A stretch of DNA of 25,929 nt from Clostridia bacterium (GCA_017442025.1 JAFSBD010000042.1:1-25929); one strand, 5' to 3'. Positions 1 to 7,206 are shown, counted from the stretch's first letter. Program-made: numbers and translations. The notes: a model not told the origin generated them from the sequence alone.

Positions 1-1
1 A

Positions 2-86
2 GCCCGCCTGCAGGCGGGCGGAAGGGCGGAGAAAGGGGGACGGGATGCCCTGCGCTCAGCATTTTTTCGGCTGCTGCGGGCAAAAG
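2..86. repeat. Partial GC-rich palindromic (REP-like) element at window edge
   Basis: Perfect 18-bp palindrome gcccgcctgcaggcgggc (2-19). The segment ggctgctgcgggcaaaa (69-85) resembles the reverse complement of the hairpin repeat end at ~24277-24295. Confidence 0.4.
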
Positions 87-94
87 TAAGCTGA

Positions 95-267
95 ATGAAA
101 TATTGCTACGCAATATGAAATAATCCGAACGGATTATGAAATTTTCTGCTACCGCAGAAAGTGAAATAAAATTCGTTCCTTCATATGCCTCGGGCATATT
201 TCACATTTGCGAAGCAAATATTTCATAGCGAAGCTATTTCACTCGTTCCGCAAGGAACGAATTTCAT
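95..267. repeat. Hairpin-ladder repeat 1 (4x RTGAAAT then 4x ATTTCAY, hairpins between units)
   Basis: RTGAAAT at 95, 115, 136, 161; ATTTCAY at 198, 220, 236, 261. Intervening hairpins: attgc-tac-gcaat, aatcc-gaac-ggatt, tttctgc-tacc-gcagaaa, atatgcc-tcg-ggcatat, atttgc-gaa-gcaaat, agc-gaa-gct, tcgttcc-gcaa-ggaacga. Confidence 0.9.
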
Positions 268-302
268 TGAAAAAAGCACTTGCCTTAGCAAGTGCTTTTT
301 TC
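268..302 (-). terminator. Intrinsic terminator downstream of tRNA-Ser
   Basis: gaaaaaagcacttgc-ctta-gcaagtgcttttttc, a perfect stem with T-tracts on both strands, directly after the tRNA CCA end. Confidence 0.85.
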
Positions 303-390
303 TGGCGGAGGAGAAGGGATTCGAACCCTTGTGCCTTTTGGGCAAACGGTTTTCAAGACCGCCTCGTTATGACCACTTCGATACTCCTCC
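303..390 (-). tRNA. tRNA-Ser (anticodon TGA)
   Basis: The reverse complement reads GGAGGAG...GCGGT-CTTGAAA-ACCG...long variable arm...GGGTTCGAATCCC-TTCTCCTCC-G-CCA. Acceptor stem GGAGGAG/CTCCTCC, G73 discriminator, encoded CCA, 88 nt. Confidence 0.97.
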
Positions 391-4194: not shown

Positions 4195-4348
4195 GCGATA
4201 TGCTTTTTTACATACCTCGCCTTGGCGAGATATGTAAAAAGCGCGATATATTTGCCATGGGCAAATGCGATATCATTTTGCAAGCAAAATGGCGATATGA
4301 TATAAACCCCGCAAGGGGTTTATATCGCTGCCCAAGCGTTGCTTGGGC
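4195..4348. repeat. Hairpin-ladder repeat 2 (4x GCGATAT, 1x ATATCGC; collapsed form)
   Basis: GCGATAT at 4195, 4243, 4267, 4292 with hairpins between; gatataaacccc-gcaa-ggggtttatatc; ATATCGC at 4322; gcccaagc-gtt-gcttgggc abutting the radC stop. Confidence 0.88.
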
Positions 4349-5895: not shown

Positions 5896-5919
5896 GAACA
5901 CTCCTGAGGTAAATATTTC

Positions 5920-6273
5920 TCATTTTGAGGTTGCTTTTTCTTTTGCAGTAGTTATGGATGCAATCAGTTTGCGTCGAATGGTTCCGCATTGCCGGGATAA
6001 TTGTTGATATTGCGTTTCCGTCAATGAGGATGTTTTGAATAATACTTCCAACCAATAATCCGTTTCGTAGCATTCTTTCAGCGCAATTTCAAGCTTATGG
6101 ATAAAATCGGCTCGGCTTTGCGCGTATTTTGCTTCATAAGCATTTGCTCCGATGGAAGAGCAGGAACGAATTACTTGGTTAATGAAAACGGAACGATTTT
6201 TAATATGATCGCATATAGCAGTCAGCTCAACGGTCAGATCTACTGCTAATTCCTTTATGGTAGGCTGGTTCAT
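5920..6273 (-). CDS. Four-helix-bundle protein (23S rRNA IVP / Avd-like family)
   Basis: QVIRSCSSIGANAYEA..AQSRADFIHKLEIALKECYETDYWL is the family signature; AAAGGA RBS. Confidence 0.92.
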   Translation of the reverse strand: MNQPTIKELAVDLTVELTAICDHIKNRSVFINQVIRSCSSIGANAYEAKYAQSRADFIHKLEIALKECYETDYWLEVLFKTSSLTETQYQQLSRQCGTIRRKLIASITTAKEKATSK

Positions 6274-6289
6274 GGGGGATGTCCTTTCG

Positions 6290-6488
6290 GCGATATATTT
6301 GCCCGAGCGGGCAAATGCGATATAAGCTTTGCTTGCGATATATACACGGTGTGTATGCGATATGATATAAATCTGCCTATTCCTCGTTTTTGAGGCAACG
6401 CCTCAAAAACATATCGCGTGTGAAGCACATATCGCGCGAAAGCTTTTTCTTTTGCATATCGCAAATCTGCAGAGCAGATTTATATCGC
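6290..6488. repeat. Hairpin-ladder repeat 3 (4x GCGATAT then 4x ATATCGC)
   Basis: GCGATAT at 6290, 6317, 6335, 6357; ATATCGC at 6411, 6429, 6456, 6482; a hairpin between each pair of neighbouring units. Confidence 0.92.
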
Positions 6489-6526
6489 TGAAATAAAATC
6501 TTTAGATGCTTAAAGATTTTATTTCA
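6489..6526. repeat. 16-bp perfect inverted repeat spanning the mgtC stop codon
   Basis: TGAAATAAAATCTTTA-gatgct-TAAAGATTTTATTTCA. Confidence 0.85.
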
Positions 6527-7206
6527 GGATGTTCATCCATAAATTTCAAAACTTCACTAAAGGGAATATTCTGCTTCATTCGCACCTGCAGGATCATATT
6601 AAGGGTATTATCGGCGCAGGTAGTGATGCGGGAGGAAACGATGGTGATGCCCAGTTCCTGTTGCTTTTCCTTTAAGATGGCGCGGATCTCGGGGGTATCC
6701 ACCAAGGTCATGCGGATCTCGCCGTTGGAATAGGCATCGTAGCCCACGTTGAAATGGTGCATCAGCAACTGAACGCCAAGGATCAGCACCGCCATAAAGA
6801 TGGCGACCCAATAGAGCCCGCTCCCGCAAGCCATACCGACCGCGGCGGTGGCCCAGATGCCTGCGGCGGTGGTGAGGCCCTTCACGGTGTTGCCGTTCTT
6901 ATAGATAACGCCCGCGCCCAAGAAGGAGATGCCGGTTACCACCTGGGCGGCGATACGGGCAGGATCAGCGCCCCGAGAGCCCACCGCATCGGCCATATCA
7001 AAGAAGGCGTATTTGGAGATAACCATAAAGAGGGCGGCCGCCCCTGCGATGATGCAGTGGGTGCGGATGCCGGCTTCTTTGGAACGCTTAGTACGCTCCA
7101 GACCGATGATGGCGCCCAGGAAGGTGGCCAGAATGATGCGCAGAAGATAGATCAGCATCGGGTGTTGAACGAAAAATTCTTTTATAATGTTTAAAACAGC
7201 AGCCAT
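6502..7206 (-). CDS. MgtC/SapB family membrane protein (canonical copy)
   Basis: GLERT, AGIRTH, DPARIAAQVVTGISFLGAG, GLTTAAGIWATAAVGMACG; C-terminal soluble ACT-like domain. Confidence 0.92.
   Translation of the reverse strand: MAAVLNIIKEFFVQHPMLIYLLRIILATFLGAIIGLERTKRSKEAGIRTHCIIAGAAALFMVISKYAFFDMADAVGSRGADPARIAAQVVTGISFLGAGVIYKNGNTVKGLTTAAGIWATAAVGMACGSGLYWVAIFMAVLILGVQLLMHHFNVGYDAYSNGEIRMTLVDTPEIRAILKEKQQELGITIVSSRITTCADNTLNMILQVRMKQNIPFSEVLKFMDEHPEIKSLSI

Follow-up and report, generated by a model that had tools for sequence, protein, structure and literature searches.

Organization of the ladder element behind tRNA-Ser

The DNA under study (the window, 25,929 nucleotides (nt); JAFSBD010000042.1:1-25929) is the entire contig C4 of the Clostridia bacterium genome GCA_017442025.1, a 1.69-Mb assembly of 347 contigs that is 80% complete. 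At positions 95-302 it carries a ladder of short words and hairpins behind a gene for a transfer RNA (tRNA), tRNA-Ser (anticodon UGA; 303-390, minus strand), which is recognised by ARAGORN and by the Rfam tRNA model. The left words (RTGAAAT, four copies) are ATGAAAT at 95-101, 115-121 and 136-142 and GTGAAAT at 161-167, and the right words (ATTTCAY, four copies) are ATTTCAC at 198-204 and 236-242 and ATTTCAT at 220-226 and 261-267. Every gap between words at 95-268 is filled by a flush hairpin: 102-114, 122-135 and 143-160 in the tRNA-distal half-array (95-167, plus strand; four words, three hairpins), and 183-199, 205-219, 227-235 and 243-260 in the tRNA-proximal half-array (183-268, minus strand; four hairpins, four words), with a centre of 15 nt between the halves. 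The 4+4 layout given in the original prediction, which was made from the sequence alone, is exact in coordinates and architecture. The fold z-scores of the ladder are -9.8 and -9.2 for the two strands against shuffles.

In the central segment (165-181), the end of the fourth word is joined to a sequence that copies the 5' arm of hairpin 243-260. The segment is complementary at 16 of 17 bases to 252-268, which comprises the 3' arm of the same hairpin and the last word. These two segments are the strands of a long-range helix that competes with the local hairpin 243-260 and contains the pairing of 169-179 with 254-264 that had been picked out before. Next to the last word lies a perfect palindrome (269-302; GAAAAAAGCACTTGC / GCAAGTGCTTTTTTC; arms 269-283 and 288-302, 15 bp, loop of 4 nt), which adjoins tRNA-Ser at the first base after its CCA end. 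With an 8-bp G+C-rich core in the 15-bp arms and six T on each strand, it reads as an intrinsic terminator in both directions; a simple terminator scan missed it, because the T run falls within the counted stem. The second ladder of the window (6290-6488, with the word GCGATAT) and its palindrome (6488-6527) are also as described in the original prediction, and both palindromes indeed touch the 3' end of a minus-strand gene, since the second one overlaps the stop codon (6502-6504) of mgtC.

The element is a mirrored form of the Gut-1 motif

The Rfam model Gut-1 (RF01706) matches the minus strand of 193-269 end to end with 63.1 bits (cut-off 50), the minus-strand reading of the proximal half thus giving the full motif. 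A second match (82-147, plus strand, 42.1 bits) lies under the 50-bit gathering cut-off, and the GCGATAT ladder at 6290-6488 reaches 22.7 bits only. Alignment to the consensus showed in 193-269 (minus strand) the arrangement of the Gut-1 RNA motif, that is, three covarying hairpins split and flanked by (G)UGAAAU linkers. Since there are two matches, one per half and on opposite strands, the element consists of two mutually facing Gut-1 motifs. Gut-1 was published as a motif from human-gut metagenomes that occurs in no sequenced organism (Weinberg et al. 2010, PMC2864571 and its supplement), and the publication does not have the inverted pairing of motifs, the central long-range helix, the link to a terminator and a tRNA, the other word classes or the PF05635 partner described below. 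A literature search on Gut-1 and the ladder turned up only this account and general papers on Avd and intervening sequences. At 95-302, the known motif takes a fuller form that is unpublished. In Rfam, Gut-1 has stood as an orphan since 2010, without organism, context or function. In the original prediction, neither the match to Rfam nor the links to the tRNA and to a protein partner had been noticed.

A dispersed repeat family with several word classes

The genome was scanned for at least three copies of a 6-mer followed by at least three reverse-complement copies at hairpin spacing. The scan found 15 loci in the genome and none in three first-order-shuffled genomes, which bears out genome-wide the pattern first noticed in the window. 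Seven TGAAAT ladders with recognisably homologous hairpins are present (C4:95, C51, C57, C108, C137, C199 and C340), as well as many more with GCGATAT or TCGATAT and two each with CAATTCATG and GTGATAT; further words, such as GTGAAGT, GTGATGC, GCTAAAT, GTATATCA and others, occur in relatives. All eight words are uniform within an array, and all the word types seen roughly fit GYGAWRT. The idea of a family with conserved topology and word subtypes thus holds. Its premise that the two cores in the window are unrelated is wrong, because GTGAAAT and GCGATAT share the same base at five of seven positions.

In five of the seven TGAAAT ladders the element stands directly behind the CCA end of a tRNA (Ser-UGA, Ala-CGC, Leu-UAA, Gly-GCC and one tRNA cut by the start of C340), in the fixed order tRNA, GAAAAA..TTTTTC palindrome, AA, first word, and most ladders retrieved from relatives likewise start behind a tRNA. 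The side of the long-range helix is the tRNA side in every case, so the element is asymmetric and its orientation is fixed. Among 41 related genomes, Gut-1 matches were found in 29, which extend into several further families of the order; single genomes hold up to 43 matches, and the mirrored layout recurs in the loci retrieved from them. Thus, 95-302 is one copy, without a gene of its own (an 'orphan'), of a repeat family that is dispersed in the genomes of uncultured gut/rumen Clostridia. Since many copies sit at contig ends in these genomes, the elements, dozens per genome, break the assemblies of gut Clostridia; in annotation they should be masked or labelled as repeats rather than as small RNA genes. 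A comparison copy in the window, at 4243-4330, is a GCGATAT array in 'collapsed' form: it lacks the block between two copies of a hairpin arm, and its long-range helix is reduced to a simple terminal hairpin; the same state is found in the closest relative, G043.

Association with PF05635 four-helix-bundle proteins

The genome encodes five PF05635 relatives, and four of the five genes adjoin a ladder in the order palindrome, ladder, gene (C4, GCGATAT; C199, TGAAAT; C137, CAATTCATG; C133, GTGATAT). The fifth gene, in C120, is cut by the contig end, and its product is 91% identical to the C133 protein. The TGAAAT-class gene of the genome lies behind a sister ladder after tRNA-Gly in contig C199. 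At 95-302 there is no PF05635 gene directly past the last word, and tblastn found no PF05635 relative in 1-94; otherwise the ladder has the make-up of the cassettes, with about four words, about four reverse-complement words, a hairpin in each gap and a centre that complements the first word and the outer arm of the palindrome-proximal hairpin. A rule of one gene per word class holds for TGAAAT, GCGATAT, CAATTCATG and GTGATAT; for TCGATAT no gene of that clade was found, and the C120 fragment is a second GTGATAT-type gene.

The same association is found in relatives. About 65 of 80 PF05635 loci in metagenome-assembled genomes of gut/rumen Clostridia (whose titles include Congzhengia, Faecousia, Acutalibacteraceae, Oscillospiraceae and Christensenellaceae) have a clear ladder that ends 13-55 nt before the gene, and the word class follows the protein clade (GCGATAT, TCGATAT, GTGAAAT, WTGAAAT and GTGATAT clades, SH-aLRT 85-98). 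The gene and Gut-1 matches are present together in 26 of the 41 genomes and absent together in 10, with the gene alone in one and matches alone, few or weak, in four; moreover, four genomes of the same genus have neither the gene nor Gut-1 matches.

The closest solved relative of the protein is 2RLD (E 1e-37, five chains), and a passage citing the Xcc0516 structure reports the PF05635 family as an assembly of five four-helix bundles (PMC3936711). The reported motif GxxRxxxSxxxNxxE is found as R36, S40, N44 and E47. At residue 27, R, C, H or K is present depending on the word class, which makes it a candidate specificity position, no more. The PF05635 relative Avd forms a barrel with a structured RNA lying over it (bioRxiv 10.1101/2023.10.23.563531). 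Kinship with HEPN RNases was rejected, the family being unmentioned in the HEPN survey paper and the protein lacking the Rx4-6H motif. Like Gut-1, the PF05635 proteins outside diversity-generating retroelements (DGRs) are unexplained, though they are common in bacterial genomes, intervening sequences of ribosomal RNA (rRNA) and cas loci.

In the GTGAAAT-class cassettes (L086, L088, L093, L094, L095 and L097), a near-consensus TTGAAA-18-TATAAT promoter lies about 75 nt before the gene start, and a AAAGGCGGTG ribosome-binding region is also located between the last word and the gene. Because the promoter stands between the last word and the gene, the ladder is not generally the leader of the gene. 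The GCGATAT cassette of the window leaves only 16 nt between the two. A TATAAT..AAAGGCGGTG-like stretch is also present past the gene-less ladders of C51, L006 and L007.

A TGAAAT-class cassette, with a ladder that has the long-range helix and a PF05635 gene whose product is 71% identical to the C199 protein, occurs in L233 (MT835590.1, 'UNVERIFIED: Bacteriophage sp.', from human faeces); this contig may come from a phage that carries the cassette, or be bacterial and misclassified. A phage or plasmid origin of the ladder DNA itself was not adopted, as blastn gave no match in phages; plasmids were not searched.

Insertion at gene ends

In G043, where the neighbouring gene is 86% identical, tRNA-Ser is followed by another terminator and an element of about 190 nt, named element X, at the start of which the 3' end of the tRNA itself recurs in inverted form. 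In the alignment with this trailer, the flank of the ladder (1-94) retains only the far end of X, at about 20-75 (..GCCCGCAGC.GCCGA.AAAAA..GAGCGCA..CATCCC), so that the palindrome and ladder replaced the native terminator and most of X. Since the closest relative carries a different trailer at this tRNA, the ladder arrived later. Element X itself has the order native terminator, inverted tRNA 3'-end copy, T/A-rich hairpin and a conserved stretch with ..GGTCGACAAAAACCGAGAGCGCACCGTATCCC at its end; no Rfam family covers it, and it is seen in the window (1-75), in C122, C200, C319, C329 and C345 and in L110, L112, L114 and L117.

In other species, the same tRNA-Ser is followed by ladders of other classes, namely GTGATAT (G013, G017), GTGAAGT (G021) and GTGATGC (G003). 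The palindrome arms of 269-302 are also found in G013 (L121) and G008 (L002), and behind tRNA-Tyr in L088, a gene-bearing GTGAAAT cassette in which hairpins 2 and 3 match the ladder 95-302. Furthermore, the ladders of C199 (gene-bearing, tRNA-Gly) and C137 (orphan, tRNA-Leu) have a common palindrome and six of seven stems, which indicates that palindrome and ladder move, or are copied, as a unit.

The arrival of a complete member can be followed at the second ladder of the window. Within the 606-nt cassette (5896-6501, minus strand) lie the PF05635 gene at 5920-6273, the GCGATAT ladder at 6290-6488 and, of the palindrome, the inner arm. The cassette is missing from G043, where the flanks are contiguous and the junction is clean, and from most of the genus too. 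The outer arm of the palindrome is formed by the last codons of mgtC, which are present everywhere, and the inner arm is their inverted copy; this arm (6488-6510 region) provides the stop codon of mgtC, and the far end of the cassette (5896-5919) supplies the next host gene with a ribosome-binding site, an AGGAG box 5 nt before its ATG. In the empty state, mgtC and the next host gene are one base apart (TAA, T, ATG), and the cassette can be called 'polite'. A remnant occurs in three genomes, and in each the inner arm matches the genome's own mgtC ending.

The 3' end of an rlmD-like methyltransferase gene (L219, L221, L228 and L231) is a hot spot with ladders in four genomes, TCGATAT in two, GTGATAT in one and ATGAATTG in one; the inner arm again mirrors each genome's own last codons, and in relatives without a ladder at this gene end the palindrome is absent there. 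A long upstream open reading frame (ORF) ends within the palindrome in about 20 examined cassette loci. From these comparisons of occupied and empty sites, the inverted flank copy is part of how the cassettes arrive or settle, by a putative fold-back or template-switch step or through putative later quasi-palindrome correction. Such copying of the flank, inverted and from a local template, is unusual as a signature of insertion and hints at spread without a transposase.

Long-range helix, folds and strand asymmetry

For 61 ladders oriented by gene or tRNA, the best complement of the end of the centre was sought. It was the outer arm of the first hairpin in 49 ladders, with five ties and seven cases elsewhere, and the mean exact match was 7.0 nt for this arm versus 4.2 nt for the best other hairpin. 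When extended through the first word, the helices are exact over 10-14 bp in about 20 different sequences (for example, GATATAAATTCCT, TGAAATTTGCCC, TAAATCCACCC and AAATTCGTTCCTT). The central-spacer pairing proposed for the window is thus kept in other copies across the subtypes without conservation of sequence, and the shuffled genomes yield no ladders at all.

On the tRNA-sense strand, the minimum-energy fold has -84.0 kcal/mol, the fold with the long-range helix enforced -82.7 and that with nested word-word pairs enforced -75.1; the corresponding values for the plus strand are -79.8, -74.6 and -71.5. Because the long-range-helix fold is at most 1.3 kcal/mol off the minimum on the tRNA-sense strand, two near-equal states are possible there. 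The suggestion of selection on a two-state fold stands in this energetic respect; the conserved pairing has another possible explanation as well, since the elements carry locally templated inverted copies of host flanks and inverted copying at the DNA level could likewise yield the long-range helices. A ladder in which each word pairs with its mirror word across a four-way junction was rejected: the enforced folds are 8-9 kcal/mol worse on either strand, no compensatory change was found, and a variant first word TAAAT has its complement in the centre, as the partial word ATTTA, with the last word unchanged at ATTTCAC. In some arrays, left words GTGTTAT even stand opposite right words ATACCAC/ATATCAC, so that mirror complementarity of the words is not strictly kept.

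Watson-Crick pairs make up about 98% of the hairpin stems. Among 356 inter-word hairpins folded to minimum energy, those of the proximal half are stabler when read antisense to the tRNA or gene, and those of the distal half when read in the sense direction (Wilcoxon p ~1e-11 each). In these folds, the strand reading ATTTCA/ATATCGC has 53 G-U pairs versus 14 on the other strand. Internal wobble positions number 16 versus 4, and the loops of the ATTTCA/ATATCGC strand are of the GNA/GNRA types (GAA, GCA, GTA, GCAA, GAAA). The strand favoured by loops and wobbles is opposite to the Rfam orientation of Gut-1 and is mirrored between the halves. This asymmetry suits two halves that each work on a separate strand, or that arose through inverted copying, and argues against a single RNA with both halves equally optimised; as the sequences are mutually related, all these numbers are indicative only.

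A central promoter for divergent small RNAs was suspected from candidate -10 boxes (TAAAAT in type A, TGATATAAA in type B). It was discarded, as a consensus scan was negative, the box is absent from other word types and the start site would cut the long-range helix.

Interpretation and alternatives

Considering the joint distribution of ladders and genes, we give about an even chance to the reading that 95-302 is a gene-less member of a selfish family composed of a ladder and a four-helix-bundle protein, in which the words would be sites of the cognate protein on single-stranded nucleic acid. Read away from the tRNA, the unit consists of the terminator palindrome, four 7-base words between hairpins (one Gut-1 motif), a centre repeating one arm of hairpin 1, four reverse-complement words between hairpins and, in complete members, the PF05635 gene directly past the last word. 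The words would be recognised by the cognate, probably pentameric, protein, and the hairpins, whose sequence is free and whose pairing is kept, would be spacers presenting consecutive words. The long-range helix of 12-17 bp would close the tRNA-proximal half into a compact three-hairpin domain in competition with hairpin 1. Cassettes and orphans land at the extreme 3' end of genes for tRNAs or proteins, in the same orientation as these, and their presence varies between close relatives, as expected of an insertion-prone module with a logic comparable to that of REPIN repeats and their RAYT gene.

Several observations weigh against this reading. The compared genomes are related to each other and the counts overstate their independence, and the matching of words to clades could partly be mere linkage of gene and ladder. 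TCGATAT ladders are present, yet no TCGATAT-clade gene was found in the 80%-complete assembly, and the fragmentary assemblies of G021 and G003 yielded no cognate genes for their GTGAAGT and GTGATGC orphans. A helical bundle of 117 residues without an evident catalytic site means that mobilisation needs host functions; a search of the 80%-complete genome found no reverse transcriptase (PF00078), and its one Y1 match (PF01797, 29.7 bits, C336), a weak one, is not beside ladders. Finally, given the promoter of the GTGAAAT-class cassettes, a role of the words as double-stranded operators is possible.

REP and BIME elements and REPINs are dispersed extragenic palindromic repeats at gene ends that form inverted doublets, and their partner RAYT is a Y1 HUH transposase. 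The ladders resemble them in the inverted doublet unit, the many gene-less copies, the one repeat-flanked gene per class and the coexisting classes. However, in contrast to REP, conservation here lies in the linker word and the hairpins vary freely in sequence, and the linked gene encodes a four-helix bundle instead of a Y1 HUH transposase. A RAYT or IS200 partner was rejected, the only candidate being the weak unlinked match in C336. This sole Y1-transposase-like ORF of the genome (C336:9049-9465, L139) holds in its frame a 31-nt inverted repeat that is 90% complementary.

In the cassettes of integrons, attC sites are imperfect palindromes recognised by structure over sequence, with 7-base cores (RYYYAAC / GTTRRRY) and the integrase IntI. 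They are similar to the ladders in having inverse 7-base core sites, in heading mobile single-gene cassettes and in stacking at hot spots, whereas the words here do not fit the GTTRRRY core by inspection, the arrays are multi-hairpin and an inverted copy of the host flank, foreign to integrons, is made. No IntI is seen nearby, though no search aimed at integrases was made.

In Leptospira, intervening sequences of the 23S rRNA bear an ORF. A 23S rRNA intervening sequence with an S23p/PF05635 ORF is described in a Coxiella report (PMC4990558). These share with the ladder family the PF05635 protein, the small selfish insert, the stable-RNA genes and the inverted repeats. Unlike the insertions in helix 25 or 45, the element of the window lies behind tRNA-Ser and outside an rRNA helix, the array precedes the gene instead of flanking it, and copy 95-302 has no ORF; no rRNA was found in the window with Rfam.

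Avd in DGRs is a homologous barrel-forming four-helix bundle that binds a multi-hairpin RNA encoded alongside. However, no template/variable repeat pair is present here, and nothing in DGRs corresponds to the words or the ladder. A DGR was rejected because no reverse transcriptase was found in the 80%-complete genome.

Among the alternatives, an element acting at the DNA level is unlikely. Hairpins and words of single-stranded DNA would be the substrate of recombination or template switching, as with integron attC sites, REP/REPIN or quasi-palindromes, and copies would be made by replication fold-back and template switching, with the four-helix-bundle gene as mere cargo. The nearly complete Watson-Crick pairing of the stems speaks for it, as do the inverted host-codon copies checked against empty sites (mgtC, and the rlmD-like gene with three word types), the upstream ORFs ending inside the palindrome at about 20 loci, and the collapsed array 4243-4330, which lacks a block flanked by direct repeats of a hairpin arm. 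Loops of the GCGAAGC-type GAA kind are stable in DNA hairpins, and this too counts for it. Nevertheless, it gives no account of the covariation of word and protein clade, of the uniformity of the arrays or of the absence of ladders from gene-less genomes, and no recombinase is linked. It is compatible with the selfish ladder-protein reading if the protein assists a step on single-stranded DNA.

The view taken in the original prediction, a free-standing structured non-coding RNA (the class in which Rfam places Gut-1) that switches between hairpin 243-260 and the helix 165-181/252-268 without a dedicated protein, is rather improbable. The strong fold z-scores, the hairpins kept by compensatory changes in the Rfam consensus, the two states within 1.3 kcal/mol on the tRNA-sense strand, the helix conserved over word classes and the terminator past the proximal half on the plus strand are all consistent with it. 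However, no sigma-70-like promoter was found in or beside the ladder, and stand-alone half arrays (contig C22) are flush between two terminators, leaving no promoter space. Moreover, the halves fall on opposite strands by the asymmetry of loops and G-U pairs, copy numbers in the dozens per genome and insertion polymorphism resemble a repeat family instead of a gene, and such a switch fails to explain why eight identical words change together with the clade of a neighbouring protein.

It is more improbable still that the ladder is a double-stranded operator array, on which the protein would act as a transcription factor of its own promoter while the orphans control neighbours or tRNAs or act as decoys. 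In GTGAAAT-class cassettes the last word does adjoin the -35 box of the TTGAAA-18-TATAAT promoter, and some orphans (C51, L006, L007) are directly upstream of a host TATAAT promoter. However, the word spacing varies from 16 to 28 bp, which gives no helical phasing, conserved hairpin pairing with free sequence would be pointless on duplex DNA, no promoter was found on either side of the ladder 95-302, and the known relative Avd binds RNA.

Passive punctuation, that is, a reinforced bidirectional terminator, an insulator or an RNA-stabilising tRNA trailer without a specific partner, is highly improbable, for although the elements are always at 3' ends beside terminators and a hairpin with AUUUCA resembles a weak terminator (243-260 was flagged in the scan), a plain terminator suffices for most tRNAs of the genome, words such as ATATCGC and GCATCAC are not U-rich, and the matching of word and protein and the conserved long-range helix are left unexplained.

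The mirrored element, the word classes that match protein clades and the joint gain and loss with the genes bring two orphans, Gut-1 and the PF05635 proteins, into one testable hypothesis, that of a sequence-specific protein with a multivalent structured nucleic-acid partner. In a wider and more doubtful extension, which we put forward tentatively, ladders and PF05635 proteins may be an unrecognised class of self-propagating protein/nucleic-acid modules: a pentamer would read its own 7-base word, displayed in four to five copies with hairpins as struts between them, word and protein would co-evolve into orthogonal classes that coexist, and copies with an inverted host flank would be written at gene 3' ends by fold-back or template switching. 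If true, this would give a function to the orphan Gut-1 and to the widespread four-helix-bundle proteins outside DGRs, including the ORFs of rRNA intervening sequences.

Another repeat family in the same genomes

Another short repeat family, with clustered hairpins GTACAATTTAATTGTAC and ..CCAATTCATTTGGG.., was observed at C188:4237-4540, C255:2509-2812 and C336:1752-1963 and in L111, L112 and L114, and it also occurs within the tRNA-Ser trailers of relatives.

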